Origin: Terriglobia bacterium
GTDB lineage: Bacteria; Acidobacteriota; Terriglobia; Terriglobales; Acidobacteriaceae
Assembly (NCBI GenBank): GCA_963796205.1
Contig: CAWCKR010000004.1
Coordinates: 742,726 to 766,725 of the forward strand
DNA length: 24,000 nucleotides
Direction of reading: 5' to 3'
The notes below the pieces were generated by a model, which saw only the letters and a program-made list of their open reading frames with translations, ran no database searches and was not told the origin of the DNA. A program made the position numbers and the translations under genes. Shown here piece after piece: positions 10,948 through 24,000 of this stretch; position 1 is the stretch's first letter, and the number at the start of each line of letters is the position of its first letter.

Positions 10948-11214
10948 GCCAGGTCTGCTACTCCCAGGTGCGAGCCTTCTTCGGAATTCCAGGATTCAGA
11001 CGAAGCGCGGCCTGAGACGGGGAATCCCGGAAGTATACTCCACCCCAAGCCCCCGCAAACCATTGTTATGTCTAGGAATAACCGAGGTTAAGGAAGCAAC
11101 CGCGTCCCCGCCCATTGCTGTACCGAACCCGAACCAAAACCGCCGAGGACGCCGAGGTTTCCAAAATTAAAACCCCGCGTCCTCTGCGTCCCCTGTGGTT
11201 TTCACTTCTCGCGC

Positions 11215-11466: not shown

Positions 11467-11505
11467 AAATAACTCCGCTGCAACTTAACCATTTAAACTG
11501 TACGC

Positions 11506-12489
11506 GTGGGGTCCTTGCAAGACAAACCAACATTTCAGCCTCGCCGCGGACTGCGCGGCGGACACTTGCAAACCATTGGCAGCTTTCTGCTTCCGCGCCA
11601 CGTCATCCCCCCGCCCGCTGAAGAACGTCTGATCGACGTCGGAGATGGAGCCAAAATCCTTTGCCACTGTCACTGGCAGCCCGATCGCGCCAACGCGCTG
11701 ACCGTCATCGTGGTGCACGGACTGGAAGGTTCCAGCGAGTCGACATACATGCTGGGCATCGCCGCCAAAGGCTTGGCGCGCGGAATGAATGTGATCCGCA
11801 TGAACCAGCGCAACTGCGGAGGCACCGACGGCTTCTCGCCCACGCTTTATCACTCCGGACGCTCCGCCGACATCGCCGCCGTAGTCCGCCATCTCATGAA
11901 GAACGATCGCATTTCTCGTTTCGCGCTCGTAGGATTTTCCATGGGCGGCAACCTGGTGCTCAAGCTCGCCGGTGAGTGGGGAAGAGAAGGACCTTCCGAA
12001 TTCCGCGCCGTGGCGGCGGTTTGCCCTTCCGTCGATCTCGCAGCCTCGGCCGATGCGCTCCATCTGCCCAGTAACCGTTTGTACGAGTATTACTTCCTGT
12101 GGAGGTTGCGCCGGCGCCTGCGCGAGAAAGCGCGCCTGTTCCCCGGTGTCTTCGACGTCTCCCGCCTCAACGGCGTGACCACGTTGCGCGACTTCGATGA
12201 CAAAGTAACCGCCTTCTATTGCGGATTTGAGGGCGCCACTGACTATTACGCCCGCGCCGCCGCATCGAATGTCATCGATCGCATTGCGGTTCCGGCGTTT
12301 ATCCTCAATGCCGCCAATGATCCCTTCATCCGCATCCTTCCCGAAACACGCAAGAAGATCCTCGCGAATCCGCACATCACTTTTATCGAAACCGCCGACG
12401 GCGGGCACTGCTCCTACCTTGCCCAACCTGACGGAGACGACGGCCGCTGGGCCGAAGTCCGTGTGATCGAATTCCTGCGAACGATTTGA
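11506..12489 (+). CDS. alpha/beta-fold hydrolase (YheT-like)
   Basis: 327-aa ORF from GTG. N-terminal RGGHLQTIGSF. Nucleophile elbow GFSMGGN. HG at the end of VIVVHGLEGS. The full-length antisense ORF 11485..12498 is treated as a shadow. Confidence 0.85.
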   Translation: MGSLQDKPTFQPRRGLRGGHLQTIGSFLLPRHVIPPPAEERLIDVGDGAKILCHCHWQPDRANALTVIVVHGLEGSSESTYMLGIAAKGLARGMNVIRMNQRNCGGTDGFSPTLYHSGRSADIAAVVRHLMKNDRISRFALVGFSMGGNLVLKLAGEWGREGPSEFRAVAAVCPSVDLAASADALHLPSNRLYEYYFLWRLRRRLREKARLFPGVFDVSRLNGVTTLRDFDDKVTAFYCGFEGATDYYARAAASNVIDRIAVPAFILNAANDPFIRILPETRKKILANPHITFIETADGGHCSYLAQPDGDDGRWAEVRVIEFLRTI

Positions 12490-12825: not shown

Positions 12826-14144
12826 GTGTTCCAGCGATTCCGCGCGCTGCTTTTGTTGAGTCTGCTCCTATGCCTGCTGAGTTGTGGCGGGGGCAGTTCA
12901 AACGCCAATCCCGCTCCGCCTCCTCCCCTTCCCGGCGCCATTCCCGCCAAACTTTTTTCGCTCTCCGTTCACAGCGTCAACGACTGGCCGACGGTTCCAT
13001 TTGCCGGCCTTCGCCTGTGGGGAACCGGTACTTCATGGCAGGACATCAATTACGCACCGGGAATCTTTGATTTCTCAGCGCTCGACCGCTGGATTAGCGC
13101 CGCCCAGGCTCACAACACCGATTTGATCTACACCTTCGGCGAAGTGCCCGGCGTGGGCCTCTTCCGACACGACTCTGATTTGCGGTAACAGCGGCGCTCC
13201 CATCGGCACTTGCGCTCCGCCTGACGATCTCAATGCTGATGGCACCGGAGCCAACCAGCATTGGAAGGACTTCGTGACCGCTGTGGTCACCCACGCCGCG
13301 GGAAAAATCAAGGTCTGGGAAATCTGGAACGAACCCACCGTCCCCGGATACTGGCAGGGCACGAACCAGCAGATGCTGCGCTTGGCGCAAGACGCCTACG
13401 GCATCATTAAAGCCATCGACCCGAATGCGCTGGTGACCACGCCCGCGCCCTCTACCGGAATCAACGGCGTCGCCAACTGGATGGGCCCCTATCTCGCGCT
13501 CGGTGGTGGCAATACGCCGACATCATCAGCTTTCACGGATATAACTGGAGCACGCAGGCGGGAGTCTATCCCCAGCCCGAGGCCATCGTCCCCCTGGTAA
13601 ACAATCTGCAGGGCCGTATTGGCCAGCAATTCGCAAAATAATAAACCGCTGTGGTGCAGCGAAGGCGGCTGGGGAGACACGACCGGCAACGGCTTCGTCG
13701 ATCAGGATCTGCATGCCGCTTACTTGGCGCGCCACTACCTGTTGCAGGCAAGTGAAGGCGTCGTCCGTTACTTCTGGTATGCCTGGGATAATGGCCTCGA
13801 CAGCGCCGGATTGCCCGATGGACTCTGGCTTCCTAATCTCCGGCATCACGCCGGCCGGCACGGCCTATCAGCAAATTCAAAACTGGATGGTCGGCGCCGT
13901 GCCGACCGCCCAGTGCTCCGCCAACGGAAACATCTGGACCTGCAATTACACTCGCGCGAACGGATATCAAGCCGAGGCGATCTGGGATACCTCGAAGAGC
14001 TGTTCGAACGGCATCTGTGGCACCGGCCCGCAAGGTGCACCATCGCAATATGTGCACTACCGCGATCTCAACGGCAATACCACCAGCATTACCGGTGGTA
14101 CTGTCCCGGTGGGAGCGAAACCGATCCTGTTAGAGAATCAGTGA
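12826..14144 (+). pseudogene. clan GH-A (TIM-barrel, GH39/GH5-like) glycoside hydrolase lipoprotein, disrupted by four frameshifts
   Basis: Lipoprotein signal (LLLCLLSCGG). The reading frame must switch near 13150, 13511, 13636 and 13815 to give a continuous sensible protein. That protein carries WEIWNEP (acid/base Glu), ADIISFHGY and KPLWCSEGGWG (nucleophile Glu). ORF-track pieces: 12826..13188, 13274..13600, 13619..14185 and 13713..14144. Confidence 0.75.
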
Positions 14145-14253
14145 AGCTCGTGCAGATGACCGTCCCGTTGCGCGTCTCGCCATAATGCGAGGCAATCTGC
14201 TTGATCCATTGGAAGGGCGTGTCCATTGCATGAGCCAGCCGATGGAACGTCTC
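14143..14253 (-). pseudogene. possible relic fragment of an arylsulfatase-family gene
   Basis: A start-less ~37-codon stretch, AHAMDTPFQWIKQIASHYGETRNGTVI, resembles the conserved TPFQW-KQ(V/I)ASH-GGTRN block of large arylsulfatases as I remember it. It is bounded by a stop upstream and has no continuation. Confidence 0.3.
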
Positions 14254-14356
14254 TTATAGGGACGAGCTTAGACTATCTGCGATCTCCTAAGGCAGAGCGG
14301 ACTTGCTATCATTGGAGAAGCGTTACCGCTTTGAACTGTGGTCTTTAGTCGGAAAC

Positions 14357-14433
14357 GGGCGCGTAGCTCAAACGGATAGAGCATCGGATTTCTAATCCGA
14401 GGGTTGCAGGTTCAATTCCTGCCGCGCCTACCA
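14357..14433 (+). tRNA. tRNA-Arg (anticodon TCT), CCA encoded
   Basis: Manual cloverleaf. Acceptor GGGCGCG/CGCGCCT. D arm GCTC-AAACGGATA-GAGC. Anticodon arm TCGGA-TTTCTAA-TCCGA. Variable loop GGGTT. T arm GCAGG-TTCAATT-CCTGC. Discriminator A followed by CCA. Confidence 0.95.
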
Positions 14434-14542
14434 GCCCGCCGGCTTCAGCGTCGCGGCCCGGGGGCGTGCCTGTCTTTGTAGATACCTCATGGTTGCCATT
14501 CCGTTTGACCGCTGCCCTGCTTATGTTGGATATTGAGACGGA

Positions 14543-14722
14543 ATGGACACCGAGCGGACCATTGCCGAAATCGAGTGGCTGGAGCGCATGTTCGCCGTGC
14601 CCGACGCCAGGCCGCTGAGCGCGAGTGACATCTCGGCTGCGAATCGAAGGCACGACGAGATGAACGCCCAAAGCCCGTGGTTTCAGCTTTGGCATCGGTA
14701 CGGCATCTGCTGCCGCACCTGA
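14543..14722 (+). CDS. possible small protein (59 aa), unknown function
   Basis: ATG..TGA ORF just below the track's size cutoff: MDTERTIAEIEWLERMFAVPDARPLSASDISAANRRHDEMNAQSPWFQLWHRYGICCRT. G/C-rich third positions resemble neighbouring genes. The RBS is weak. Confidence 0.35.
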   Translation: MDTERTIAEIEWLERMFAVPDARPLSASDISAANRRHDEMNAQSPWFQLWHRYGICCRT

Positions 14723-14740
14723 CGCGCTTCACTCCAGCAG

Positions 14741-15154
14741 TTACGACCTTCCCACGAAAGACACTCGTTCGGGGTGTCTCACCAGACTCACCGCCAAGAA
14801 CGCACCGAGAAGAGCATCAAACGCCAGGCAGAAACCCGGCCACCAGTGTGGTACACCGGGGTTGTCGATGAAGAAGCGGTGGACGAAGTCAAAAATGCCG
14901 TGCCCAATAAGGGCGGCGACTATCCACCAGAAGTTTTTTCTGAAGCCGAGGACGGCAACCAGCAGGAATGCGCTTGCGACAACGATTTCAATGATCAGCG
15001 CGCGCCGCGAAGCTCCCATCGCAGCAAACAACACATAATAGGAGGCAATCACGATCAGCACGGTTGGATAGAAGGCGCGCGCCCGATCAAAGCCAGTCAT
15101 GGCAGCAAAACCAGCCACCGCCAAAGACAGGATCAGGCCAATCAGATATTCCAT
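14741..15154 (-). CDS. small integral membrane protein (about 4 TM), unknown function
   Basis: ATG 15154 is preceded by GAGGAG. MEYLIGLILSLAVAGFAAMTG... has four hydrophobic segments. The 79-codon upstream extension in the ORF track (to 15391) is Arg-rich and not protein-like. Confidence 0.65.
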   Translation of the reverse strand: MEYLIGLILSLAVAGFAAMTGFDRARAFYPTVLIVIASYYVLFAAMGASRRALIIEIVVASAFLLVAVLGFRKNFWWIVAALIGHGIFDFVHRFFIDNPGVPHWWPGFCLAFDALLGAFLAVSLVRHPERVSFVGRS

Positions 15155-15353
15155 TTGCTCCTCTCGCCGCGGGGCCCGCACGGATCTGCAATACCCGAAC
15201 TTCCCGGCATGCTTCTCTACCGTTTCGGATCCCTGTCGTCGGGCGTATTCCCCGCGCCTGATGGCGTTCGACATTCCGAGTTCCTCGTCACGTCGGGCAC
15301 GGGAAAGGCGACAATTCCTCCCCAAGTTCCGCGTCGCCCCCCTCGCTTTTCTA

Positions 15354-15371
15354 TTGTGACTTACGTCACAA
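15354..15371. promoter_or_regulatory. perfect CRP/FNR-family type palindrome
   Basis: TTGTGAC-ttac-GTCACAA, i.e. TGTGA-N6-TCACA with extended arms. It lies about 110-125 nt upstream of the cytochrome-porin ATG (15480), in the divergent intergenic region. Confidence 0.4.
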
Positions 15372-15479
15372 ACCTGCGTGACCCCTGCCACAGCGTCTTG
15401 GGTCGTAGCTAACCGAAAATCCCCACACTGAGTTTGGGGAGTATCGGTTCAGAGAATGAATTCATTAGGAGGCGATTCG

Positions 15480-17054
15480 ATGCCCATGCATCGTCGCAAG
15501 ACTGCAATCTTGTTCGTGCTCGCTGGCATGATTCTGCTGTCGAGCACAAGCTACGCCATTCCCGCGTTCTCACGCCTGTACGGGACATCGTGCAGCACCT
15601 GCCACCTCGACTTCCCCAAGCTCAATGACTTCGGGAAAGCCTTCAAAGATGCTGGCTTCAAGTTTCCGAAAGACGACGAAACCTTCATCAAGATCCCGCC
15701 GGTGATGCTCGGATCGCAGGCCCAGCAGGAACTCTGGCCGCACACGATTTGGCCGGGCAGCATTCCCGGACTGCCTCCGATCGGCCTGCGCTATAACACC
15801 TTTTTCCAGGTGGTCAGCCAGAATCGCAACAATTACTCGAATCTGCAGAACCCGGGAGATCCAACAGCCGGCTTCATCCCCCGTACCGATTTTCAGTCCG
15901 GACTGTTCAGCATCTTTACGGCTGGAAACTTCGGCAGCGACATTGCCTTCTGGGTTGATGACGATATCAGCGTTGGAGGGGCTAACGCCAATGGCGGTCT
16001 CGGCGACGGTTACCTCAAGTTTGTGAACATCGGACGCTTCCTCAAATTGCCGACAGACTCTCTGAGCTTGCGGGTCGGCCAATTCGAACTCGACTTGCCC
16101 TTCAGCCCGGCGCGCAGCTGGAACCTGAGTGGTTGGGACATTTACGGTCAGTCCAATGTTGGAATCCCGAACGCGACCTTTGGAAGCCCCACGGTAAATA
16201 ATGGCTTTTCCCTGGATAGTGCCGCGCAGGGCGTCGAACTCAGCGGCGGCCATACCTACCGCGGCTACCACTACTCGCTCGCCTTCGTGAATCAAAACAC
16301 CGGTGGCACGCCGGCCGGCGGCACGAACGTTCCGCCTGAGGTTCAGTACACCTCCGACTCGAACTTCAAAGATATCTACGGACGCTTCTCCTATCGTTTC
16401 AATCTCGAGCGCGATCCTAAAAGCCGCAACGAGATTCAGGCCGCGGGAGCTACGGGGCCGCGAGACCATACGTACCTCAACGTAGGCGGCCTCTACTTCT
16501 ACGGCCGTTCGGTGCAGCGCTTCCAGGGACAAGACTCCGCCGGCGATCCCGTCGTTCTCACCGCGCGCGAGCCCTTCTATCGTGCGGGCGCCGATTTCAG
16601 CTTTAACTACCATACCTTCAACCTGTTCGGTCAATACATCTACGGACGCGATCAGAACCTGCTGCCCCTGGTCCCGACCAATTTCGTGTTGCCCAGCGGC
16701 TTCATTACCGGCCATCCGGCGACTTTCGACGGAGGCTTCATCGAAGCCGACTATCTGGCGCTGCCCTGGTTGATGACCATCATGCGCTGGGACGAGGTCA
16801 ACTCCAGCGCCGACTTCTTGAATGGCGTGGGCGCCACTCCCGACTCCTCGAGCGCACCTTTCCTCTCACCCTACCGCTCGGCTCGCAACCGTTTCACACC
16901 CGGAGTGCAGTTCCTGGTTCATGCCAACATCAAAGCCTCGTTCGAATATCAGATTCGGCCCCAGCAGGTCGTTTACGACCCCACGACCGGCAAGCCATTG
17001 ACCAATCCCTTCCGCACCAATTCAGCGGTGGCGGGATTGGAGTTCGTGTACTAA
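15480..17054 (+). CDS. Cyc2-like fused monohaem cytochrome c / outer-membrane beta-barrel porin
   Basis: ATG 15480 lies 7 nt after AGGAGG. Signal peptide ending SYA. A single CxxCH sits right after the cleavage site in PAFSRLYGTSCSTCHLDFPKLNDFG, with a PxL motif after the haem site. About 470 aa follow, rich in Gly, Tyr, Phe and Asn with an alternating pattern. The protein ends in the OMP-type terminus GLEFVY. Confidence 0.8.
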   Translation: MPMHRRKTAILFVLAGMILLSSTSYAIPAFSRLYGTSCSTCHLDFPKLNDFGKAFKDAGFKFPKDDETFIKIPPVMLGSQAQQELWPHTIWPGSIPGLPPIGLRYNTFFQVVSQNRNNYSNLQNPGDPTAGFIPRTDFQSGLFSIFTAGNFGSDIAFWVDDDISVGGANANGGLGDGYLKFVNIGRFLKLPTDSLSLRVGQFELDLPFSPARSWNLSGWDIYGQSNVGIPNATFGSPTVNNGFSLDSAAQGVELSGGHTYRGYHYSLAFVNQNTGGTPAGGTNVPPEVQYTSDSNFKDIYGRFSYRFNLERDPKSRNEIQAAGATGPRDHTYLNVGGLYFYGRSVQRFQGQDSAGDPVVLTAREPFYRAGADFSFNYHTFNLFGQYIYGRDQNLLPLVPTNFVLPSGFITGHPATFDGGFIEADYLALPWLMTIMRWDEVNSSADFLNGVGATPDSSSAPFLSPYRSARNRFTPGVQFLVHANIKASFEYQIRPQQVVYDPTTGKPLTNPFRTNSAVAGLEFVY

Positions 17055-17084: not shown

Positions 17085-17666
17085 ATGAAACGCAATGCCC
17101 TAGTCATAACCATGATCGTCGCTGCACTGGCGCTCGCCGCTCACGCCGGCACCATCAGCGGAAAAGTCTCAGGTGTCGCCGGCGAGTCTGTCGTCTACGT
17201 CGACACCATCGCGGGAAAGACTTTCCCGGCGCCCACGCAGAGTCCCATCATCGACCAGAAGGGTCTCTTGTTCCAACCGCACATTACCGCCGTGCAGGTT
17301 GGAACTACGGTCGAATTCCTCAATAGCGACAGCGTCGCTCACAACGTTTTCTGGACCTCGGTTGGAGGCAACAAGAAGCTCGGACACAACCTCGGTACCT
17401 GGCCCAAGGGCGAGAAGCGTCCCTTTAAGTTCGACAACCCTGGCGCGGTTGCACTGCTGTGCAATGTCCATCCCGAAATGTCGGGCTACGTCATCGTCGC
17501 TCCCACACCGTATTTCGCCGTGACCGACAAGTCCGGTGAATACAAGATCGAAAACGTCCCTGACGGAAGTTACACAGTGACTGCCTGGCATGAAGGCGCA
17601 AAAAATTCCTCCAAGCCTGTCACCGTCTCCGGCGACACCAAAGCGGATTTCACTCTGACCAAGTAA
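17085..17666 (+). CDS. periplasmic type-1 copper (cupredoxin, amicyanin-like loop) protein with a C-terminal CarboxypepD_reg-like beta-sandwich
   Basis: Signal peptide (ALALAAHA). Candidate Cu ligands are the His in SVAHNVFW plus the Cys, His and Met in LLCNVHPEMSGY (C-x2-H-x2-M, as in amicyanin). C-terminal KSGEYKIENVPDGSYTVTAWHEG. AGGAGA RBS. Confidence 0.85.
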   Translation: MKRNALVITMIVAALALAAHAGTISGKVSGVAGESVVYVDTIAGKTFPAPTQSPIIDQKGLLFQPHITAVQVGTTVEFLNSDSVAHNVFWTSVGGNKKLGHNLGTWPKGEKRPFKFDNPGAVALLCNVHPEMSGYVIVAPTPYFAVTDKSGEYKIENVPDGSYTVTAWHEGAKNSSKPVTVSGDTKADFTLTK

Positions 17667-17672
17667 GGAGAA

Positions 17673-17705
17673 GGGGAGCGGTCGCTGACCGCTCCCTTTT
17701 CTTCT
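17673..17705 (+). terminator. rho-independent terminator
   Basis: GGGAGCGGTC-gct-GACCGCTCCC is a 10-bp GC-rich stem followed by TTTTCTTCT, starting 7 nt after the cupredoxin stop. Confidence 0.6.
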
Positions 17706-17758: not shown

Positions 17759-19744
17759 ATGCTGAAACGCTACAAGGACAAAAAAGTCGACAAGGATTGG
17801 TTGAACACAAACTTTCCTTGCATGATGGCCTGTCCGGCCCACACTAACGCGGGACGCTACGTAGGCCTGATCGCCGAAGGCCGCTTCGAAGAAGCCTACA
17901 AAATAGCCCGCGACCCCAATCCCCTGGCCAGCATTTGCGGACGCGTCTGTGCTCATCCGTGCGAGACCGCCTGCCGCCGCGGCGAAATCGACAAACCGAT
18001 TTCCATCCGCGCCCTCAAGCGCTTTCTCACCGAACGCTACGGCGCCGAATCGAAGCACCCCGTCGATGTGAACGCTGGCCGTGGCCAGAACAAGCTACCT
18101 TTCAAGGTTGCTGTCGTTGGCGGAGGTCCCGTCGGACTCTCTGCCGCGCACGACCTCGCCTTAATGGGCTACGCGGTCACGATCTTCGAAGCCGCTCCAG
18201 TCGCCGGCGGCATGCTCTACCTCGGCATCCCCGAATACCGCCTCCCGCGCGACGTAGTCGAAGCTCAAGTCCGCGAGATCCTCGAAACTGGCGACATCAC
18301 CTTGCTGTTGAATCACGCCGCCGGACGCGACTTCGCCATCTCCGACCTCCGGCGAGAAGGCTTCGATGCTGTCTTAATCGCTGTCGGCGCTCACCGTAGT
18401 CGCGACCTCACCATTCCCGGAGTCGATCTCGACGGCGTCTACAAAGGCATCGATTTCCTGCTGAACGTCAACCTCGGCTACAAGTTCACCATCGGCAAGA
18501 AGGTCATTGTCATCGGCGGCGGCAATGTGGCCATGGACGTCGCTCGCTCCGCCGCGCGCGAAGTGGTCAAGCAACACGTCGCCGGAGTCGAAGACCTCGA
18601 ACCCTCGATGGAGAACGTCAGCGCGGTCGCCACCAAAGAAATGGTCGACATCTCGCTCTCCGCGCTGCGCATGGGCGCTCACGAAGTGAATCTCGTCTGC
18701 CTCGAAAAGCGCGAGGAGATGCCTGCGGCTTTGGAAGAGATCGTAGAGGCCGAAGAAGAAGGCATCATCATGCATCCCGGCCTCGGCCCCAAGCGCATGA
18801 TCGGGAAAAACGGACACGTGGTTGCCCTCGAAGCTCTGAAGACCAAGTGGGTCTTTGACGAGAACAAGCGCTTCAATCCAGCGTTCTATGAGGGCAGCGA
18901 GACCCTCATCGAGTGCGACACCATCATCATGGCCATTGGCCAGGCCCCGAAGCTCGACTTTCTAAAGAAGGAAGACGGCGTCGAGATTTCTCCTCGCGGC
19001 TTGATCTCAGTCAATCCGCAAACCCTGATGACCTCAGCTTCCGGCATCTTTGCAGGTGGCGATTGCGTCTTCGGTCCGCGTCTCATCATCGACAGCGTCG
19101 CCGATGGCAAGCGCGCCGCAGTTGGCATAGACGAATTCCTGCGCGGCCAGAAGCATCCCGATCCCATCGTTGAAGTGGAAGTTTTCAAACGCCACAGCAT
19201 GCCTCTCGAATTGCTCGACCTGGTGCGGCCCGCCGTACCCATGCTGCCGCTCGAACGCCGCACCGGAGTCACCGAAGTCGAAATCGGATACGACGCCGCC
19301 AGCGCGGTCGAAGAGGCGCAACGCTGCCTGCACTGCTGGGTCAATACCGTCTTCGAGGGTGTCCCCGAAGACGGCACCATGTGCATCCTGTGTGGCGGAT
19401 GCGTCGATGTCTGTCCTGAGAATTGCCTTGAACTGGTTTCGCTTGGCCGCATCGCCTTCGAGCCGGAAACCGTGCAGCACATCCGCGATGAACAGAAGTT
19501 GTTCGGCGTCGAGCTCGATGAAGTGGCTGCGGACGAACTCGGCGTTGTCACCGGCTCGGCCATGCTGAAAGATGAAACCCGCTGCATTCGTTGCGGATTA
19601 TGCGCTGCCCGATGCCCTGTCGGCACCATCACCATGGAGTCTTACAACCTGGTTCCTGCCGAACCCACGGGATTGATCTCCATTGAAACGATTGATGGAC
19701 CACTTCGCGCCAAAGCCCCGGCAACTGTAGGAGGCCCGAAATAA
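17759..19744 (+). CDS. GltD-like (glutamate synthase small-subunit family) FAD/NAD(P)-binding Fe-S oxidoreductase with a C-terminal 2x[4Fe-4S] ferredoxin domain
   Basis: N-terminal Fe-S motifs (FPCMMACPAHT, CGRVCAHPCETAC). Two Rossmann motifs (VVGGGPVGLSAA, VIGGGNVAMDVA). GGDC near the FAD site. C-terminal CILCGGCVDVCP and CIRCGLCAARCP. No signal peptide or TM helix, so predicted cytoplasmic. Confidence 0.9.
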   Translation: MLKRYKDKKVDKDWLNTNFPCMMACPAHTNAGRYVGLIAEGRFEEAYKIARDPNPLASICGRVCAHPCETACRRGEIDKPISIRALKRFLTERYGAESKHPVDVNAGRGQNKLPFKVAVVGGGPVGLSAAHDLALMGYAVTIFEAAPVAGGMLYLGIPEYRLPRDVVEAQVREILETGDITLLLNHAAGRDFAISDLRREGFDAVLIAVGAHRSRDLTIPGVDLDGVYKGIDFLLNVNLGYKFTIGKKVIVIGGGNVAMDVARSAAREVVKQHVAGVEDLEPSMENVSAVATKEMVDISLSALRMGAHEVNLVCLEKREEMPAALEEIVEAEEEGIIMHPGLGPKRMIGKNGHVVALEALKTKWVFDENKRFNPAFYEGSETLIECDTIIMAIGQAPKLDFLKKEDGVEISPRGLISVNPQTLMTSASGIFAGGDCVFGPRLIIDSVADGKRAAVGIDEFLRGQKHPDPIVEVEVFKRHSMPLELLDLVRPAVPMLPLERRTGVTEVEIGYDAASAVEEAQRCLHCWVNTVFEGVPEDGTMCILCGGCVDVCPENCLELVSLGRIAFEPETVQHIRDEQKLFGVELDEVAADELGVVTGSAMLKDETRCIRCGLCAARCPVGTITMESYNLVPAEPTGLISIETIDGPLRAKAPATVGGPK

Positions 19745-19746
19745 CC

Positions 19747-20238
19747 ATGGCTGACGAGAAACGGATCACCTCGCCGCTACCTACCGACGAGCACTCGCGT
19801 CGGGAATTTTTTCTGAAGCTGGGACTCGGATCACTGGGCATCGCCGCGGCGGGAACGACGGTTTTCGCTTACCAGTTCCTCTCGCCGAACGTGCTCTTTG
19901 AACCTTCCCCGATCGTGAATGCCGGCAAGCCCGAAAGCTACCCCCTCGATTCTGTGACGCTCGATGTCAACAACGGCATTTACCTGATTCACGCCAAGGA
20001 AGGATTCTTCTCGCTAAGTGCCATCTGTACGCATCTCGGTTGCATGACCGCGTGGAAGCCGGAACTCGGCATCATCGCCTGCCCCTGCCACGGCAGCAAG
20101 TTCAAGCGCGATGGCGAAAAAATCGAAGGCCCCGCACCCAAGCCGCTGCCCTGGCTCAAAACCTGGGTCAGCGATGAAGGCGATCTGATGGTCGACCGCT
20201 CCGCCGACATTCGTCCCATGGAGTTCGTGAGGGTTTGA
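19747..20238 (+). CDS. Rieske [2Fe-2S] protein with Tat-type signal/anchor
   Basis: [20 protein letters not shown] (twin-Arg). Cluster boxes CTHLGC and CPCHGS. The start is 2 nt after the upstream stop. Confidence 0.9.
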
Positions 20239-20240
20239 GC

Positions 20241-21032
20241 ATGGAAAAAACGGTCTCAAATTATTTTGATGAGTTGCGCGCAACCAGAATCTGGCGCTCG
20301 GTCTTCCGCAGTGGCATAGGTTCGAGCACTCTGCACCGCTCGCTGGCCATCCAGCAGAACGTCTTCCTGCATCTGTTCTCGACCAAAGTTCGCCGCCGCA
20401 TGCTGAGCTTCAGCACCACCTGGTATCTGGGAACGCTGACTCTCGGGACGTTTCTGATTCTGGTCAGCACGGGAATCTTCCTGATGCTCTACTACCATCC
20501 CTCGGTGCCCCAGGCATACGCCGACACCAAGGACCTGCAGTTCGTCGTTTCTTCCGGACTGTTTCTCCGCAACCTTCATCGCTGGTCCGCACACGCCATG
20601 GTGTTCCTCGTCTTCGCGCATATGTTCAAAGTTTTCTATCGCGGCGCTTATCGCGCCCCCCGCGAGTTCAACTGGGTTATCGGCGTCATCCTTCTGGTCA
20701 TCACGCTTCTGCTCAGCTATACGGGATACCTTCTTCCCTGGGATCAACTCGCCTACTGGGCGATCACCATCGGATCGAATCTCGCTTCGGCGGTTCCGGT
20801 CTTCGGAACCAAGGTCCACTTCCTCATGCTGGGTGGAAATCAGGTGAACGCCAACGCGCTGCTGCGCTTTTACGTTCTGCACTGCATGATCTTGCCGCTG
20901 ACCGCGATCATGTTCATCGCGATTCACTTCTGGCGCATCCGCAAAGACGGCGGACTCTATGCGCACCAAAGCGAACCTAAGACTCTCGCCGCACCGACCG
21001 TGCCGCAAGTCGCCGGAAAGGAGGCGCTGTGA
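20241..21032 (+). CDS. cytochrome b6-type (N-terminal half of a split cytochrome b)
   Basis: Haem-ligand pairs H-x13-H ([17 protein letters not shown]) and H-x14-H ([17 protein letters not shown]); the x14 spacing is b6-type. [11 protein letters not shown] motif. ATG 20241 with a GAGGG RBS; TTG 20235 is an alternative. Confidence 0.9.
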
Positions 21033-21733
21033 GCGATCAGAAAGACTTCGTCGCCGGACTGGATTCCAACGCCCGCAAGTCTCCGAAGCGTATTGTTTTC
21101 GTCACGCGCCGTACTTCGGCGCAAGTCAAAGTCACCGACGAGGACCAGCTTCAGACCTATCCGGAGGTGCTGTTCCGCGCCGTAGTGGCCATCGAAACCC
21201 TGGCGATCGCCCTCGTCGTCATCGCGCTCGCCTTCAATGCGCCGCTTGAGGGCCTTGCCGATCCATCGCATACACCGAACCCTGCAAAAGCACCGTGGTA
21301 CTTCCTTGGCCTGCAGGAAATGCTGCACTATTTCCCGCCCGTGGTCGCCGGAGTTCTGGTACCGACGCTGGTCATCATCGCGTTAGTGGTCATTCCCTAC
21401 TTCAACATCAATATCGAGGCGGAAGGGTTGTTCCTCAAAGACCGCCAGAAGCGTCTGCGGATCTTTTACACGATCGTCATCGTGTTTTGTGCGTTTTTAC
21501 TCTTCTTCGATGTCATCGTTGCTCTCGTCCCAACGCTCATTGTCGCCGCCTTTATGATCGCGGCGTCGCAAAGTTCACCGCAGTCGCCTTCGCCCTTTCG
21601 ACGGTATCTCGCGGCGAAACCGCTCTCTTACTGGATCATGACCTGGTTCCTGTTCGAACTGGTCGTGCTCACTGCTGTTGGCACCTTCTTCCGCGGCCCG
21701 GGCTGGTCCTGGGTGCTGCCCTGGAGGAGCTAA
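21029..21733 (+). CDS. cytochrome b C-terminal-domain / b6f subunit IV-like membrane protein with extra C-terminal TM helices
   Basis: GTG start overlaps the upstream stop (GTGA), with GGAGG upstream. [19 protein letters not shown] corresponds to the PEWY-region motif. There are several further hydrophobic helices. Confidence 0.8.
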
Positions 21734-23821
21734 GTGCAATCATCGGGCAAGAACTCTCTCTGGAAAACGCTCTTTGGTGATCCCGTCCGCGCCTTCGGCG
21801 TCGTCAGCATACTTCTGCTGATCTCGCTCGCCATTGCTCCGGCAAAAAATTACTTCAGCGAGTGGCGCCACTACCAACACCAATACCTGAAACTCGTTCG
21901 CGGACGCGGCGACGCCGTCACTCTGCAGCGTCATTTCGAAGCAGGCATTCACCAGATCTGGCTGCCCGAAATCAACGTTGTCGATCGCTGCACCACCTGC
22001 CACGTCGGCCAGAAGGAAGCCAGCCTCACCGATGTCAGCACGCAGCCTTTCCGCCGCCATCCCGCGATTCCGCACACCTCCGAACAGTTCGGATGCGTGA
22101 TGTGTCATCGTGGACAGGGCGCCGCGACCACCGTCGAAGAAGCCCATCGCAGCACGCTGGCCTGGGAGCAGCCGATCCTCCCCGCACGCTACGTTGAGTC
22201 ATCCTGCGGACAATGTCATCACACCCCGCTGACCGGAACGCCGCAGTTAAACGCCGGCCGCGATCTGCTGGCCCGCGCGGGATGCGTCCATTGCCACACC
22301 ATCAAGGCACAGGACGGCAGCGCCATGAAAGCCTCCGACGATCCCCCCTCTCTTTCGCACATCGCCGACAAGACCACGCGCGAATGGATCTACGCCTGGC
22401 TCAAAGATCCACAAGCCTATGCCGTCACCGCGGGCATGCCCAACTTCAAGCTGAGCGATAACGATGCGCGCGACATCTCGGCATTCCTCATCGCGAACAG
22501 CACGCCGCTAGTGGGTGACACCGCAACGGTAGCTGCACCCGGCAAGGCGCCTGATCCGACCGCCGGCGCCAGCCTCTACGGAGAGTCCTTCTGCGCTTCT
22601 TGCCACGCCGTGCAGAATGCCGCTGGGAACGTTGTCGGCGGCAACATCGGACCCGAACTCACTCGCGTTGGCAGCAAGGTGAAACCGGAGTGGTTGCAAG
22701 CGTGGCTGAAAAATCCGCGCACCTATGACCCAGCAACGGCCATGCCGCACTACCGTTTCACCGACCAGCAGGTGAGCGTGCTGAACGGTTTCCTGCAGGC
22801 CAAGGCCGATGCCGATCTGCTCGCGAACGTTCACCTCGAGGCCGCCACTGCTGACCAGATCGCCCACGGCAAACTTCTCGTCACCGAATACGGATGCGCC
22901 TCCTGCCACGAAATCAGCGGGATCAAGAAGCCCGAAAACTTCGCTCCCGAACTCACTCGCATCGGCAGCAAGCCCGTCACGCAACTCATTTTCCTGCCGG
23001 GGATGCAACACTCGCTGCCCGACTACATCTCGAATAAGATCCGGCAGCCGCGAGCCTTCGGATCCGCGCTGAAGATGCCGCAGTACAGCTTCACGCCCGC
23101 GCAGATCGACGCACTCACCACCGCGCTGCTCTCGCTCACCGACCGATCGCAGAGCTTGCCGATGTCGCTCGCAGTGGCCGCGCCTCCAGGCTCGCACTAT
23201 CAACCTGCGGGCAAAGCCGGACAGCTGATCAACGATCTAGCTTGCTTCAGCTGCCACACCATCAACGGCCGCGGAGGCGATATGGCCCCCGACCTTACCT
23301 GGGAAGGCAGTTCCGTGCAGCGCCAGTGGTTGACCGAATTTCTGAAGAATCCCAACACCCTTCGTCCCGCATTGATTCGCCGCATGCCGAAGTTCAATCT
23401 TTCTGATAGCGATATTAACGAACTCACTGATTACATCATGACCGTCTACCAGACGCCGGCCTTCGATCGCGACTCGATGCCGCAGACCGGATATCCCGCC
23501 GCGCAGGTCGAACAAGGCAAGCAACTCTTCTATTCCAAATACGCCTGCCAGTCGTGCCACATCATTGACACGAAAACGGACAAGGGATACGTCGGGCCCA
23601 CTCTCACACAAGTGGGATCACGCCTGACCGCCGCATGGATGTATCACTGGCTGAAGAATCCGCAGGCTCTTCGCCCCGGAACGATGGAGCCGAACCGCAA
23701 CATGAGCGACGAAGATGCGCAGGCATTGACCGCCTACCTCACCACGCTAAAAAGCGGAAAGGCAGCAGCCAAGACAGCTGCCCACACCGGGAAACCCGCA
23801 ACTCTGGAGGCAAGGAAATGA
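21734..23821 (+). CDS. membrane-anchored octahaem c-type cytochrome (3-haem N-terminal module plus five tandem class-I monohaem domains)
   Basis: Eight CxxCH motifs: CTTCH, CVMCH, CGQCH, CVHCH, CASCH, CASCH, CFSCH, CQSCH. N-terminal TM helix FGVVSILLLISLAIAP. The last five motifs are each followed ~45-60 aa later by a conserved Met (MPNF, MPHY, MPQY, MPKF, MEPN). GTG start lies directly after the upstream TAA, with GGAGGAG upstream. Confidence 0.9.
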   Translation: MQSSGKNSLWKTLFGDPVRAFGVVSILLLISLAIAPAKNYFSEWRHYQHQYLKLVRGRGDAVTLQRHFEAGIHQIWLPEINVVDRCTTCHVGQKEASLTDVSTQPFRRHPAIPHTSEQFGCVMCHRGQGAATTVEEAHRSTLAWEQPILPARYVESSCGQCHHTPLTGTPQLNAGRDLLARAGCVHCHTIKAQDGSAMKASDDPPSLSHIADKTTREWIYAWLKDPQAYAVTAGMPNFKLSDNDARDISAFLIANSTPLVGDTATVAAPGKAPDPTAGASLYGESFCASCHAVQNAAGNVVGGNIGPELTRVGSKVKPEWLQAWLKNPRTYDPATAMPHYRFTDQQVSVLNGFLQAKADADLLANVHLEAATADQIAHGKLLVTEYGCASCHEISGIKKPENFAPELTRIGSKPVTQLIFLPGMQHSLPDYISNKIRQPRAFGSALKMPQYSFTPAQIDALTTALLSLTDRSQSLPMSLAVAAPPGSHYQPAGKAGQLINDLACFSCHTINGRGGDMAPDLTWEGSSVQRQWLTEFLKNPNTLRPALIRRMPKFNLSDSDINELTDYIMTVYQTPAFDRDSMPQTGYPAAQVEQGKQLFYSKYACQSCHIIDTKTDKGYVGPTLTQVGSRLTAAWMYHWLKNPQALRPGTMEPNRNMSDEDAQALTAYLTTLKSGKAAAKTAAHTGKPATLEARK

Positions 23822-24000
23822 CAAGGCGCGAACTCACCATCGGCGCAATGACGTTTCTCCTGATGCTCTCCGCTTGCTCGCGCAAGTCTGCCCCGGCATC
23901 AAGTCCTGCAGGCACGGCCTTCGGCGCTGCTATCGTCGAATCAAGTGGAGGCAAGCAGATCGGAGCCACCGGCGCGACCCTCAGCCAACCAATCGTCGTC
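23818..24000 (+). CDS. lipoprotein, partial (continues beyond the window)
   Basis: The ATG overlaps the upstream stop (ATGA). MTRRELTIGAMTFLLMLSAC has a lipobox-like LSAC. The frame is open to the window end. Confidence 0.5.
   Translation, partial: MTRRELTIGAMTFLLMLSACSRKSAPASSPAGTAFGAAIVESSGGKQIGATGATLSQPIVV

Follow-up and report, generated by a model that had tools for sequence, protein, structure and literature searches.

The window analysed here, a stretch of 24,000 nucleotides from an uncultured soil acidobacterium (Terriglobales, "Ca. Sulfotelmatobacter"-like), carries a Rieske/cytochrome b operon led by a GltD-like NAD(P)/FAD/Fe-S oxidoreductase, as the initial annotation had proposed, and this operon is homologous subunit by subunit to a kuste4569-4574-type cluster of the anammox bacterium Kuenenia (L086). 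The most likely function of the encoded proteins is a reversible quinone-based bifurcation joining menaquinol, NAD(H) and a high-potential chain in the periplasm and outer membrane, and we give about even chances to the full proposal that the genes at 17759-23821, together with the one that starts at 23818, code for a single membrane complex carrying out this reaction. What was observed directly is which subunits are encoded, how well they are conserved, and that their cofactor ligands are kept. Such a design, a complex-III-like enzyme with an extra NAD(H)-binding Fe-S flavoprotein, has so far been discussed only for anammox bacteria; here, it adjoins an outer-membrane iron-oxidase-like cytochrome and is widespread, its chemistry being a proposal. 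The region comprises the following features:

15456..17054, forward strand: putative Cyc2-like fused monohaem cytochrome-porin of the outer membrane, in its own transcription unit (motif, beta-rich model)
17085..17666, forward strand: periplasmic type-1 copper protein (cupredoxin) with CarboxypepD_reg-like domain (Pfam, invariant copper ligands)
17670..17700, forward strand: GC-rich hairpin plus T-run, candidate terminator or attenuator (stem, folding energy)
17759..19744, forward strand: cytoplasmic NfnB/GltD-type flavoprotein, 661 aa, with C-terminal 2x[4Fe-4S] ferredoxin domain (Pfam, NCBIfam, Foldseek)
19747..20238, forward strand: Rieske [2Fe-2S] subunit, 163 aa, with Tat signal/anchor (PF00355, conserved ligands)
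20235..21032, forward strand: b6-type cytochrome b, 265 aa, four helices, N-terminal insertion with His46 (PF00033, haem ligands)
21029..21733, forward strand: subunit-IV-like membrane subunit, 234 aa, APWY Qo motif, two extra helices (PF00032, hydrophobic segments)
21734..23821, forward strand: membrane-anchored octahaem cytochrome c, 695 aa, periplasmic side (8 CxxCH, N-terminal helix)
23818..24000, forward strand: start of a sixth coupled gene, lipoprotein cytochrome c, cut by the window end (lipobox LSAC, orthologue)

The five genes at 17759-23821 (+) are tightly coupled, with successive gaps of +2, -4, -4 and 0 nt, and all except the flavoprotein gene are preceded by a good Shine-Dalgarno sequence. 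The initial annotation had counted five coupled genes correctly, but the fifth, coding for the octahaem cytochrome c, lies beyond position 21733, where it had let the operon end, and a sixth gene that it missed also belongs to the operon, overlapping the fifth by 4 nt (ATGA). The visible start of this sixth gene contains the lipobox LSAC, and its orthologue (L001:14042-14776) codes for 244 aa with a C-terminal monohaem cytochrome c domain (CSRCH). The hairpin between the cupredoxin and flavoprotein genes, a possible terminator or attenuator, has a 14-bp stem with 8 GC pairs; the fold energy of this intergenic region is -34 kcal/mol, and the 72-95-nt spacer folds at ≤ -20 kcal/mol in 76/78 relatives.

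Since the same gene order was kept in 80/80 related Terriglobales species genomes, the arrangement is not due to chance. Adjacency of flavoprotein, Rieske and cytochrome b genes was also found in Planctomycetota, Nitrospinota, Armatimonadetes, three unassigned metagenomic lineages and Kuenenia, with varying gene order and a fused or split cytochrome b in Planctomycetota, Nitrospinota and one of the unassigned lineages. The flavoprotein gene was likewise adjacent in all three loci that were reached independently from the Rieske side, and between these lineages the flavoproteins share only 34-60% identity. Synteny bears out the linkage of the GltD-like protein with the Rieske/cytochrome b genes. 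The arrangement, which had been singled out as notable, is not rare: several hundred species genomes of Acidobacteria have it, and it occurs in several phyla. The periplasmic partners elsewhere are a HAO-like protein (Kuenenia), NarG-like molybdoenzymes, or Cyc2-like proteins with cupredoxin or cytochrome c, all of which handle high-potential couples.

The flavoprotein is the best conserved protein of the cluster (mean identity 87.7%). Its domains (Fer4_20, Pyr_redox_2 and a 2x 4Fe-4S dicluster in Pfam and NCBIfam), together with the failure to find a hydrophobic segment in its 661 aa, agree with its description as a soluble GltD-like flavo-iron-sulfur protein. By sequence, the nearest solved structures are NfnABC (9bov, E 1e-92), StnC, NfnB and GltD; an AF2 model (pLDDT 82.7) gave 9bov_A, 8oh5_C, 9n5u_A and 5jca_L as top Foldseek matches. 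On the basis of sequence and model, it is confidently assigned as an NfnB-type NAD(P)H:Fe-S module. It shares fold and domain order with the NfnI large subunit, NfnABC subunit A, StnC and GltD, and also with the N-terminal part of dihydropyrimidine dehydrogenase (Fe-S, FAD, NAD(P)H). The Cys ligands are common to these NfnB-type modules, including the CxxC after the nucleotide domain, which aligns in 9bov. Of its 20 cysteines, residues 21, 25, 64, 68, 72, 523, 526, 542, 545, 548, 552, 609, 612, 615 and 619 do not vary across 87 sequences; all eight of the C-terminal ferredoxin domain are among them, and Cys60 is kept in 85/87. The extra 2x[4Fe-4S] domain, shared with the Kuenenia subunit, sets both apart from NfnB-type modules; the present protein also differs from these in that no NfnA, GltB or HydBC partner is encoded near its gene. 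The designation as an NAD(P) oxidoreductase stands in so far as both Rossmann motifs (GxGxxG/A) are intact; however, the nucleotide site looks NADH-type rather than NADPH-type, since the beta2 strand ends in VCLE(K/R)R where Kuenenia and NfnB have VYRR, so that the NADPH-binding YRR of NfnB-type modules is replaced by CLE(K/R)R (85/87 sequences). The enzyme would thus prefer NADH. In public records, the protein is called 'formate dehydrogenase beta subunit' or 'glutamate synthase beta subunit-like'.

The three membrane-associated core subunits proved to be of the types initially assigned. The Rieske protein (PF00355) has the twin-arginine motif SRREFFLK, with R18/R19 conserved, in line with Tat export, and its ligands C94/H96/C112/H115, the disulfide C99/C114 and the Ser117/Phe119 pair are conserved. 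Its top PDB matches were Kuenenia Kuste4569 (9rk4, E 1.5e-22) and Kustd1480 (9rk3, E 3.8e-18); the latter, with a measured potential of +335 mV, has the same Ser/Phe signature. Cytochrome b (PF00033, N-terminal domain, E 4e-44) has the b6-type haem ligands His115/His129 (H-x13-H) and His216/His231 (H-x14-H). An NxxLH46 motif was present in 85/85 cytochromes b from flavoprotein-adjacent operons, in which His46 and Arg236 are invariant or nearly so; the canonical b6 of Nitrospirota L081/L082, the only canonical b6 sampled, lacks the motif and the N-terminal insertion. The subunit-IV-like protein (PF00032, Cytochrom_B_C/petD, E 4e-6) has four to five hydrophobic segments (51-69, 104-122, 149-167 (+170-190) and 199-217) compared to three in canonical subunit IV, a ten-residue stretch conserved in 87/88 sequences and an invariant APWY Qo motif. 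The haem cN cysteine is replaced by Tyr64 in cytochrome b, and Ala51 of the subunit-IV-like protein sits where Kuenenia has Glu. With both residues missing, it is less likely that a quinone-reduction site of b6f type competes for the bN electron, but the sequence would still allow a bc1-type Qi site.

In Kuenenia stuttgartiensis, Kuste4569-4574 and Kustd1480-1485 were described as Rieske/cytochrome b complexes with an NAD(P) oxidoreductase subunit (proposed by Kartal 2013; Hauser et al. 2025, PMC12954380). The comparison with anammox operons made in the initial annotation was well founded: the flavoprotein is 34% identical to its L086 counterpart over 633 aa (E 2e-101), cytochrome b 51%, the Rieske protein 40% and subunit IV 39%. 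Both systems combine a flavoprotein with C-terminal ferredoxin domain, a Rieske protein, a split b6-type cytochrome b and an extended subunit IV, and in both a multihaem c replaces cytochrome f/c1. The Rieske proteins are mutual best matches in the PDB, NfnABC (9bov/9bp5) is the best structural relative of either flavoprotein, and the APWY motif and Arg236 (Kuenenia Arg247) are conserved. His46 corresponds to Kuste4571 His43, a predicted ligand of an extra haem b, both lying within the N-terminal insertion. In contrast to Kuenenia, the present complex has neither the haem cN cysteine nor the subunit-IV glutamate, CLE(K/R)R replaces YRR, and a 35-residue insertion, modelled with low confidence by AF2, lies inside the nucleotide-binding domain. 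Gly takes the place of Arg511 of Kuste4570, a residue that touches the extra haem in other authors' AF3 model and belongs to the first of the Cys motifs in the C-terminal ferredoxin domain. Further differences are the position of the extra subunit-IV helices (before the last helix rather than appended), the four class-I domains of the octahaem c with no HAO-like subunit, the Cyc2-like and cupredoxin partners, and a host without anammoxosome.

The octahaem cytochrome c, conserved in 79/80 relatives, has 8 CxxCH motifs behind an N-terminal helix (residues 17-35) and matches Cytochrom_C five times, Cytochrome_CBB3 and a c7/c3-like family, corresponding to four closely spaced haems plus four class-I domains. 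The cupredoxin (Copper-bind, residues 56-138; CarboxypepD_reg, residues 140-192) has copper ligands His86, Cys126, His129 and Met132 invariant in 79 sequences; in 78/78 relatives whose flanking sequence sufficed, its gene is found upstream of that for the flavoprotein, and homologues occur in L088 and L089. The product of 15456..17054 gave no family match in Pfam and NCBIfam, but has a signal-peptide-like N-terminus, a single CSTCH at residue 46 within AIPAFSRLY-GTS-CSTCH-LDF-PKL, and a C-terminus ending in EFVY; the Cyc2 signature is AXPXFAR[QK][TY]...CXXCH...PXL (PMC8406198). Its AF2 model is poor (pLDDT 48), but beta-rich from residue 112, with 16-strand porins including OprP and OprO as best Foldseek matches. 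A Cyc2-like gene occupies the same position in at least 60/77 relatives, and L085, L088 and L089 also carry one. An electron-uptake module had been suspected beside the operon; the putative porin-cytochrome and the type-1 copper protein fit this, but uptake is one of two possible directions. The set resembles the Cyc2-rusticyanin-CycA1-bc1 system of Acidithiobacillus ferrooxidans, in which a Cyc2-type cytochrome-porin of the outer membrane, a cupredoxin in the periplasm and a Rieske/cytochrome b complex likewise occur together, and whose petI operon includes a nucleotide-binding protein gene (sdrA). That complex also has a non-PEWY Qo motif with Pro at the second position, but is an unsplit proteobacterial bc1 of another lineage (PPWY). 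Furthermore, SdrA is short-chain-dehydrogenase-like instead of an Fe-S flavoprotein, and NAD+ reduction in At. ferrooxidans requires reverse complex I, unlike the reaction proposed here.

Arguing for one complex are the coupled genes, the conserved adjacency, the traits common with anammox bacteria, the secure NfnB-type assignment and strong conservation of the flavoprotein, the Rieske signature, the partners and the loss of the residues for a b6f-type quinone site. From these, we infer physical association of the subunits, an extra haem, the reaction and its direction; flavoprotein docking and the extra haem follow AlphaFold3 models of other authors. The core would be a dimer of Rieske protein, cytochrome b6 and subunit IV belonging to the 'APWY' clade, with the octahaem and lipoprotein cytochromes c on the periplasmic side. 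The cytoplasmic side would be occupied by the flavoprotein, which is predicted to hold four [4Fe-4S] clusters besides FAD and a single NAD(H) site, and whose C-terminal ferredoxin domain would dock to the cytochrome b dimer on its n-side. The flavoprotein would be wired to haem bN by a further haem b with bis-His ligation, to which each cytochrome b monomer contributes its His46. The proposed reversible reaction is 2 menaquinol + NAD+ + 2 oxidised high-potential carrier <-> 2 menaquinone + NADH + 2 reduced carrier. Of the two electrons that each quinol gives up at the Qo site, one would run downhill through the Rieske cluster and the haems c to the blue-copper protein, and from there to a terminal oxidase or the Cyc2-like cytochrome, while the second would reach NAD+ by way of bP, bN and the extra haem, followed by the Fe-S chain and FAD. 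In reverse, confurcation would raise Fe(II)-derived electrons into the quinone pool, paid for by NADH and proton-motive force. Described Acidobacteriaceae use menaquinone, which is assumed here as well. A high-potential Rieske protein paired with menaquinone would leave enough energy for a very low-potential b branch, as argued for anammox complexes, in which bifurcation is biochemically undemonstrated (PMC12954380), as the initial annotation had also stated.

If this explanation holds, net quinol oxidation with NAD+ reduction is slightly favoured as the main mode over the reverse. Terriglobales are, as far as known, organoheterotrophs making NADH by catabolism, so that the need for quinol-to-NAD+ flow is not obvious. 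Presumably heterotrophic hosts and an NADH-type nucleotide site would also suit a distinctly less probable alternative, in which the flavoprotein is an NADH input module: electrons would pass from FAD over the Fe-S chain, extra haem and bN to menaquinone at an n-side site, and a forward Q cycle would feed the octahaem cytochrome, cupredoxin and Cyc2-like protein, giving a compact NADH:Fe(III) or NADH:oxidase chain with energy conserved through the Q cycle only. In plants, FNR bound to b6f is an NAD(P)-linked partner, overlooked when the initial annotation denied canonical bc1/b6f complexes such a subunit; it is thought to inject electrons near haem bN/cN, and FNR/ferredoxin to reduce quinone at the n-side in cyclic flow. 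Plant and cyanobacterial b6f with FNR resemble the present complex in the b6-type core and the NADP-linked flavoprotein at the n-side, but FNR has an unrelated fold, is not encoded with the complex, lacks an Fe-S chain and works through haem cN, a haem that the present complex does not have. In favour of NADH input, Fe(III) reduction occurs in Acidobacterium and Acidicapsa strains, and the Geobacter Ext operon encodes an outward porin-cytochrome conduit. A quinol-bc1-cytochrome c-rusticyanin-Cyc2 route was proposed for Fe(III) reduction in At. ferrooxidans (PMC8790237), and for cytochrome b, subunit IV and cytochrome c alike, the closest NCBIfam models come from the Ext operon, whose genes likewise adjoin an outer-membrane electron conduit. 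The cytochrome b, however, scored 259 bits against ExtP, its best model, below the family cut-off of 290.

With the APWY clade, which includes the Geobacter Cbc6/Ext-operon cytochrome b (Kao & Hunte 2014, PMC4122944), the present complex shares the APWY motif and a Rieske signature predicted to be of mid-to-high potential; a cytoplasmic flavoprotein is not part of the clade's description, Acidobacteria are not named among the members in its accessible part, and reverse operation is proposed from one Geobacter gene cluster only. His46 may mark the wider clade and not specifically the complexes with a flavoprotein, because the ExtP model also prefers His strongly at this position (H46A costs 4.7 bits, compared to 5.0 for a true haem ligand). 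Against NADH input speak the missing haem cN cysteine and subunit-IV glutamate of a b6f-type n-side quinone site, the wasted NADH-to-quinone energy span (an argument made for Kuenenia, PMC12954380) and the high-potential Rieske signature, for which this role has no need.

It is improbable that the flavoprotein is an n-side subunit for which NAD(P)(H) is not the sole or main partner, so that the b-haem chain would be tied to a low-potential ferredoxin or another cytoplasmic carrier, or to flavin-based bifurcation. The nearest solved relatives do belong to flavin-based bifurcating enzymes (NfnABC, StnABC, NfnI), and the replaced YRR and the low-confidence insertion would fit, but the Rossmann motifs are intact, the same module is the pyridine-nucleotide site in NfnABC/StnABC, and no NfnA-, HydBC- or ferredoxin-type partner gene was found in the window or related loci. 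Least likely of all, and very doubtful, is a separate soluble enzyme of the glutamate-synthase or formate-dehydrogenase beta type, co-transcribed with an ordinary menaquinol:cytochrome c reductase: the names in public records and Nitrospirota L081/L082, where 4 kb separate a homologue, which stands beside other small membrane proteins, from a canonical b6 complex, would suit it, but neither GltB nor a formate dehydrogenase catalytic subunit nor any other partner was found in the window, the gene adjoins or overlaps Rieske/cytochrome b genes across at least seven deeply divergent lineages, the adjoining cytochromes b share the insertion absent from the canonical b6 of L081/L082, and all three Kuenenia Rieske/cytochrome b complexes, two of them with such a subunit, were reported to be expressed (PMC12954380).

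The respiratory genes of the window form a compact cluster on the plus strand, reaching from 15456 to the window end and made up of the following features.

15456-17054 (+): Cyc2-like protein, 532 aa, with a signal-peptide-like start, one CSTCH, a beta-rich remainder and an aromatic terminal residue
17085-17666 (+): cupredoxin, 193 aa, with a plastocyanin/amicyanin-type copper domain and a CarboxypepD_reg-like domain
17670-17700: hairpin with a 14-bp GC-rich stem and a T-run, directly after the copper-protein gene
17759-19744 (+): flavoprotein, 661 aa, with Fer4_20, Pyr_redox_2 and two 4Fe-4S motifs (Pfam, NCBIfam)
19747-20238 (+): Rieske protein, 163 aa (PF00355)
20235-21032 (+): cytochrome b, 265 aa, N-terminal domain (E 4e-44)
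21029-21733 (+): subunit IV, 234 aa, petD-type domain (E 4e-6)
21734-23821 (+): octahaem cytochrome c, 695 aa, with several cytochrome c domains
23818 onwards (+): sixth gene, starting in an ATGA overlap and truncated by the window end

The initial annotation had described five translationally coupled genes with gaps or overlaps of -4 to +2 nt, and the measured junctions of +2, -4, -4 and 0 nt bear this out; genes 2 to 5 are each preceded by a Shine-Dalgarno sequence. The count of five is right if the 695-aa gene is included, but the end assigned to the run, 21733, leaves that gene out. Every sequence detail listed there was also seen on direct inspection: the flavoprotein has no hydrophobic segment and carries two Rossmann motifs, the Rieske protein contains a twin-arginine motif (SRREFFLK), the haem-ligand pairs of cytochrome b are His115/129 (x13) and His216/231 (x14), and subunit IV has four to five hydrophobic segments. 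The octahaem protein carries eight CxxCH motifs and an N-terminal anchor. In L001, a 98%-identical Terriglobales locus, the orthologue of the sixth gene encodes a lipoprotein of 244 aa whose C-terminal part carries a CSRCH haem site. The end of this lipoprotein cytochrome c gene is overlapped there by a gene (14763-16067) for a 434-aa secreted protein with no assigned function, and judging from this overlap the operon may comprise seven genes. The 72-95-nt spacer between the cupredoxin and flavoprotein genes forms a stable fold in 76 of 78 relatives. Because of the hairpin with its T-run and the persistence of the fold in relatives, the Cyc2-like and cupredoxin genes probably constitute a transcription unit of their own or an attenuated one.

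Close relatives of the flavoprotein number in the thousands at 88-98% identity, and those with names belong to Terriglobales, Terriglobia or 'Candidatus Sulfotelmatobacter'. In a scan of one genome per species, at least 579 stretches were found to encode such relatives, and gene order was counted in the best 80 of these loci. The order flavoprotein, Rieske, cytochrome b is kept in all 80, subunit IV and the octahaem cytochrome c are each kept in 79, and the cupredoxin gene lies upstream in all 78 loci with sufficient flank. The adjacency of GltD-like and Rieske/cytochrome b genes, on which the initial annotation had relied, thus holds in the best 80 loci and also in other lineages. Mean identity is highest for the flavoprotein (87.7%), followed by cytochrome b (85.5%), subunit IV (79.8%), the octahaem cytochrome c (78.5%), the cupredoxin (74.6%) and the Rieske protein (73.3%); the copper ligands of the cupredoxin (His86, Cys126, His129 and Met132) show no variation among 79 sequences. 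The names in ten clusters of close relatives were those of MAGs or metagenome contigs, with no cultured strain among them. Sources of the relatives include peat and soil sites such as SPRUCE, the Stordalen palsa, bog and fen, and Microflora Danica.

In these ten clusters the protein is publicly named 'FAD-dependent oxidoreductase' or 'formate dehydrogenase/glutamate synthase beta subunit', and for close relatives (P0012, P0036, P0058 and others) the public records give either 'formate dehydrogenase (NADP+) beta subunit' or 'NADPH-dependent glutamate synthase beta subunit-like'. We rejected an assignment as glutamate synthase small subunit or formate dehydrogenase beta subunit because the catalytic partner gene is missing and all NCBIfam equivalog scores of the flavoprotein lie below the cut-offs; neither in the window nor in the related loci was an NfnA, GltB or HydBC-like partner gene found. 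The conserved genomic context supports neither of the two names, under which these flavoproteins are now misannotated publicly.

The combination of a Fer4_20 Fe-S domain with FAD and NAD(P)H Rossmann domains, seen in Pfam matches, related structures and the predicted fold, is that of the NfnB/GltD family. The closest solved structures by sequence are the NfnB-like subunits of NfnABC (9bov, E 1e-92), StnABC (8oh5_C) and T. sibiricus NfnABC; NfnB, GltD and dihydropyrimidine dehydrogenase rank next, and a fold search with the AF2 model from a diverse alignment (pLDDT 82.7, pTM 0.83) ranks the same relatives. The same NfnABC structure is the best structural relative of Kuste4570 from one of the two NAD(P)-oxidoreductase-bearing Rieske/cytochrome b complexes of the anammox bacterium Kuenenia stuttgartiensis (Hauser et al., PMC12954380). 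Six N-terminal Cys, a CxxC at 523/526 that aligns in 9bov and eight Cys in the ferredoxin domain would, by their number, suffice for four [4Fe-4S] clusters. In Rossmann folds, an acidic residue at the end of beta2 favours NAD(H) and a pair of Arg residues favours NADP(H). At this position of the substrate Rossmann fold, V-C-L-E-(K/R)-R is found in 85 of 87 sequences (the aligned set is phylogenetically redundant, with 81 sequences from Terriglobales and independent support from about seven lineages), whereas Kuenenia, the Armatimonadetes cluster L087 and the NfnABC structure have V-Y-R-R. Since an acidic residue replaces the Arg pair, the nucleotide site of the window flavoprotein looks NADH-type rather than NADPH-type. 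Its NAD(P)-binding domain also contains a 35-residue insertion (residues 270-304, 18566-18670; pLDDT below 50), which the CLE-type flavoproteins share and which Kuenenia, L087 and NfnB-type structures lack.

The Qo motif, located in subunit IV, reads A-P-W-Y within a 10-residue stretch kept in the window and in 87 of 88 aligned sequences, and because of this motif we assign the complex, on sequence grounds, to the 'APWY clade' that Kao & Hunte described, an uncharacterised group with proposed reverse operation and mid-to-high-potential Rieske proteins (PMC4122944). In an earlier phylogeny, two Kuenenia cytochromes b grouped with those of the acidobacterium Solibacter (PMC3509893). The position of the haem cN Cys is occupied by Tyr64 in 83 of 87 sequences, and that of the subunit-IV Glu facing haem cN by Ala51 in 74 of 80 Terriglobales; with both residues replaced, haem cN is most likely absent from the window complex. 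The traits of canonical cytochrome b6f or Bacillus-type b6c (a PEWY/PDWY motif, the haem cN cysteine, and cytochrome f or a c subunit with one or two haems) were not found, APWY, Tyr64 and an octahaem cytochrome c being present instead, and with the NCBIfam model for cytochrome b6 the score is 189 bits, below the cut-off of 325.

An insertion of about 22 residues carries His46 in the motif N-x-x-L-H. All 85 aligned cytochromes b of flavoprotein-adjacent operons have this His, and Arg236 is conserved in 86 of 87 sequences. By inspection, the insertion also occurs in L087 and in L088 and L089, two lineages without assigned phylum. We considered the insertion as specific to flavoprotein-linked complexes and weakened this claim, as the NCBIfam ExtP model of Geobacter-type cytochrome b weights the same His: the score loss is 4.7 bits for H46A, compared to 5.0 bits for the bona fide ligand change H115A and none for F48A. 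Since this model weights the His46 position so strongly, the insertion may belong to the whole APWY clade.

The best PDB matches of the Rieske subunit are 9rk4 (Kuste4569, E 1.5e-22) and 9rk3 (Kustd1480, E 3.8e-18), i.e. the Rieske subunits of the two Kuenenia complexes that bear an NAD(P) oxidoreductase. The potentials of these two proteins are +303 and +335 mV (Hauser et al., PMC12954380), both above the +300 mV used here as the mark of a high-potential cluster, and the Ser117/Phe119 pair of the window protein is that of Kustd1480 (+335 mV), although SF pairs are elsewhere assigned 200-230 mV. Compared to L086, a Kuenenia sp. cluster of the kuste4569-4574 type, identities are 34% over 633 aa for the flavoprotein including the ferredoxin domain (E 2e-101), 40% for the Rieske protein, 51% for cytochrome b and 39% for the N-terminal 117 residues of subunit IV. 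Both have a split b6-type cytochrome b with its four haem-liganding His, and in both subunit IV has more than three helices. In AlphaFold3 models of the Kuenenia complex, an additional haem b sits at the interface between the two cytochromes b of the dimer, with Kuste4571 His43 as ligand and with Arg247 and flavoprotein Arg511 near the propionates; in the second complex, Kustd1481 His62 is the predicted ligand (PMC12954380). His43 aligns with His46 and Arg247 with Arg236 of the window cytochrome b, which would be compatible with the same, predicted, haem. The equivalent of Arg511 is a Gly in the first Cys motif of the ferredoxin domain, whose eight Cys are invariant. The two complexes differ in the haem cN position (Cys in FTWCMGG of Kuenenia, Tyr64 in the window), in the nucleotide site, in the extra subunit-IV helices, which are inserted before the last helix in the window and appended in Kuenenia, and in the c-type subunit, an octahaem protein with four class-I domains unlike those of the anammox complexes. 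Two subtypes can be distinguished across the family. The first form (Kuenenia, L087) is short and YRR-type, mostly accompanied by a haem cN cysteine, and has a HAO-like protein or a molybdoenzyme as periplasmic partner; the second (Terriglobales and L085, L088 and L089, the latter three without assigned phylum) is longer and CLE-type, mostly without the cysteine and often with a Cyc2-like protein.

A search of 50%-identity representatives returned 4011 relatives of the flavoprotein at E <= 1e-30, many of them full-length (590-670 aa) and 41-58% identical. Named members among the distant relatives come from Nitrospinota, Nitrospirota, Myxococcota and Planctomycetota. Three of these distant clusters are arranged as follows.

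L083 (Planctomycetota): flavoprotein, Rieske, fused cytochrome b, cytochromes c, NarG-like enzyme
L084 (Nitrospinota): flavoprotein, fused cytochrome b, Rieske, cytochrome c
L085 (no assigned phylum): Cyc2-like protein, monohaem cytochrome c, then flavoprotein, Rieske, cytochrome b, multihaem cytochrome c

In order to avoid sampling from the flavoprotein only, we also searched from the Rieske side, using the Kuenenia Rieske sequence from the PDB alignment, and inspected three non-anammox matches. In all three (L087, L088 and L089), the flavoprotein gene overlaps the start of the Rieske gene, cytochrome b is split, subunit IV has the APWY motif and multihaem cytochromes are encoded as well; in L088 and L089, genes for a cupredoxin/CarboxypepD_reg protein and a Cyc2-like protein lie upstream. 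Because the flavoproteins of these lineages are just 34-60% identical to each other, their association with Rieske/cytochrome b genes would be either old or repeatedly co-transferred. The exception are the Nitrospirota loci L081 and L082, where other small membrane proteins come after the homologue and a canonical b6 complex lies 4 kb away. In L081, from a groundwater MAG, the homologue is 48% identical and heads a group (8001-11682) that continues with a Cys-rich protein of 181 aa and two small membrane proteins, and the Rieske/b6 complex (13847-15590) has PEWY and the haem cN cysteine and lacks the His insertion; L082 is alike. Here, the flavoprotein homologue may pair with a different membrane partner. 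Molybdopterin oxidoreductase genes are found directly downstream of the clusters in L083 (12666-15899, NarG-like) and L087 (11414-13798). The relative P0150 (1069 aa) was considered as a fusion of flavoprotein and membrane subunit and discarded, since its N-terminal part is TPR-like and thus has no Rosetta-stone value.

Cyc2 proteins are recognised by a signal peptide, a single CXXCH preceded by AXPXFAR[Q/K][T/Y] and followed four residues later by PXL, a length of at least 365 aa and a 16-strand porin (Keffer et al., PMC8406198), and every characterised Cyc2 oxidises Fe(II) (PMC8406198). The window protein has a signal-peptide-like start, a single CSTCH at residue 46, a length of 532 aa and LDF-PKL, and its motif AIPAFSRLY-GTS-CSTCH-LDF-PKL deviates from that of Cyc2 by two substitutions (A to S and Q/K to L). 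The proteins of L088 and L089 (A[FI]PEFARKY) match the motif exactly, and sister genomes carry at the same position a second paralogue type with AVPSYARQT-GLA-CSGCH. In Terriglobales this position holds one of two clearly different types, 'AIPAFSRxY...CxTCH' or 'AVPSYARQTGLACSGCH'. The type other than that of the window is present in the Terriglobales loci L004 (5803-7280) and L037 (5741-7220) and in about 30 others, and the two types align significantly only over the N-terminal cytochrome domain (about 32% identity). In at least 60 of 77 Terriglobales loci, a Cyc2-like gene immediately precedes the cupredoxin gene. An AF2 model of poor quality (pLDDT 48) has about 16-18 predicted strands, and the best Foldseek matches for it are OmpF-type/16-strand porins including OprP (2o4v) and OprO (4rjw), both reported templates for Cyc2, at TM-scores of only 0.3-0.5. 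Because of the poor model and the low TM-scores, we call the protein Cyc2-like rather than Cyc2.

Since the gene coupling is conserved, the cytochrome b insertion shared and the set of Fe-S ligands invariant, the flavoprotein is very probably a true n-side subunit of the Rieske/cytochrome b complex. The quinone bifurcation proposed for anammox bacteria is the best-supported chemistry for the window complex. The quinone is taken to be menaquinone and the host to be heterotrophic, as is general for Acidobacteriaceae. Quinol would be oxidised at Qo, one electron passing to a putatively high-potential Rieske cluster and on via the haems c to the cupredoxin, and the other via bP, bN, the extra haem, the Fe-S chain and FAD to NAD+, so that the strongly exergonic branch would pay for the endergonic one. 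The Ser/Phe Rieske signature fits the need for a strongly exergonic branch, and so do the periplasmic partners seen in the family, all of them high-potential: a HAO-like protein, NarG-like enzymes, or a cupredoxin together with a Cyc2-like protein. Without a haem cN site the obvious competing sink for the bN electron would be gone. Physical association, the extra haem, nucleotide preference and activity are predictions at this stage.

The reaction is in principle reversible, and its direction is not readable from sequence. Reverse flow in the APWY clade has been argued by Kao & Hunte in their treatment of that clade (PMC4122944), and the homologous Cyc2-rusticyanin-bc1 chain of At. ferrooxidans has been invoked both for uphill electron flow from Fe(II) and for Fe(III) reduction (PMC8790237); Fe(III) is reduced by Acidobacterium and Acidicapsa strains (PMC8790237). 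The main rival explanation, in which NADH would drive quinone reduction on the n-side and an ordinary Q cycle would come next, would make the cluster a compact NADH:Fe(III) chain, and we consider it improbable.

NAD(P)-linked Rieske/cytochrome b complexes have been an unproven idea since 2013 and were discussed only for slow-growing anammox bacteria, whose system is known from genomes and models and is biochemically unproven (PMC12954380), in agreement with the caution of the initial annotation that bifurcation to NAD(P)+ had not been shown biochemically. A full-text search within a collection of papers found no description of the operon in Acidobacteria or 'Sulfotelmatobacter', or of its linkage to a Cyc2-like protein. 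Among the abundant Acidobacteria of soil and peat, several hundred species genomes carry the same design in strongly conserved form, and no fewer than six other lineages have it too, which makes it a bioenergetic module of wide distribution and not a peculiarity of anammox bacteria. The window variant is distinct in having no haem cN site, an NADH-type signature, Cyc2-like and cupredoxin partners and a class-I octahaem cytochrome c, and it is very widespread among uncultured soil and peat Terriglobales. Since the ligand His is invariant across lineages, the predicted extra haem b gains support from comparison, and the YRR (NADPH-like) and CLE (NADH-like) subtypes give testable predictions. If bifurcation takes place, it would be a second route, besides reverse complex I, to NADH from quinol-level electrons and would directly connect the NAD(H) pool with the cycling of iron in soil. 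More tentatively, and with considerable doubt, the complex might serve in hundreds of species as a direct, complex-I-independent link between high-potential iron chemistry outside the cell or in the periplasm (Cyc2-like protein, cupredoxin) and the NAD(H) of the cytoplasm, working by quinone-based bifurcation or confurcation via a conduit of three haems b and the Fe-S flavoprotein. Such a link, if true, would amount to a major, so far overlooked pathway for iron-coupled energy metabolism and for making NADH from quinol-level donors, operating in dominant peat and soil Acidobacteria and several other phyla.

The genes farther upstream in the window are unrelated to the cluster (sigma-54 activator, DUF5996, GH20 and a Ser/Thr kinase-TPR pair), and no sigma-70-like promoter was found between 14600 and 24000. 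Since sigma-54 activators stand upstream of the distant operons, we also searched for sigma-54 promoters (TGGCAC-N5-TTGC, up to two mismatches), which gave matches at chance level and none upstream of 15456 or 17759. The distant activators are located at 4179-5561 in L083, 448-1794 in L084 and 3129-4496 in L085, with 0 to 4 genes between activator and flavoprotein gene; a histidine kinase accompanies the activator in L083 and L085, and L084 has a C-terminal histidine kinase fragment at the contig edge. The window itself encodes a sigma-54-dependent response regulator (2597-4156, +), 13 kb upstream of the cluster. On the minus strand, a TPR-repeat ORF (8097-9776) and a Ser/Thr protein kinase ORF (9397-10947) overlap by 380 nt in different frames, which could reflect a wrongly set start or a frameshifted kinase-TPR fusion.
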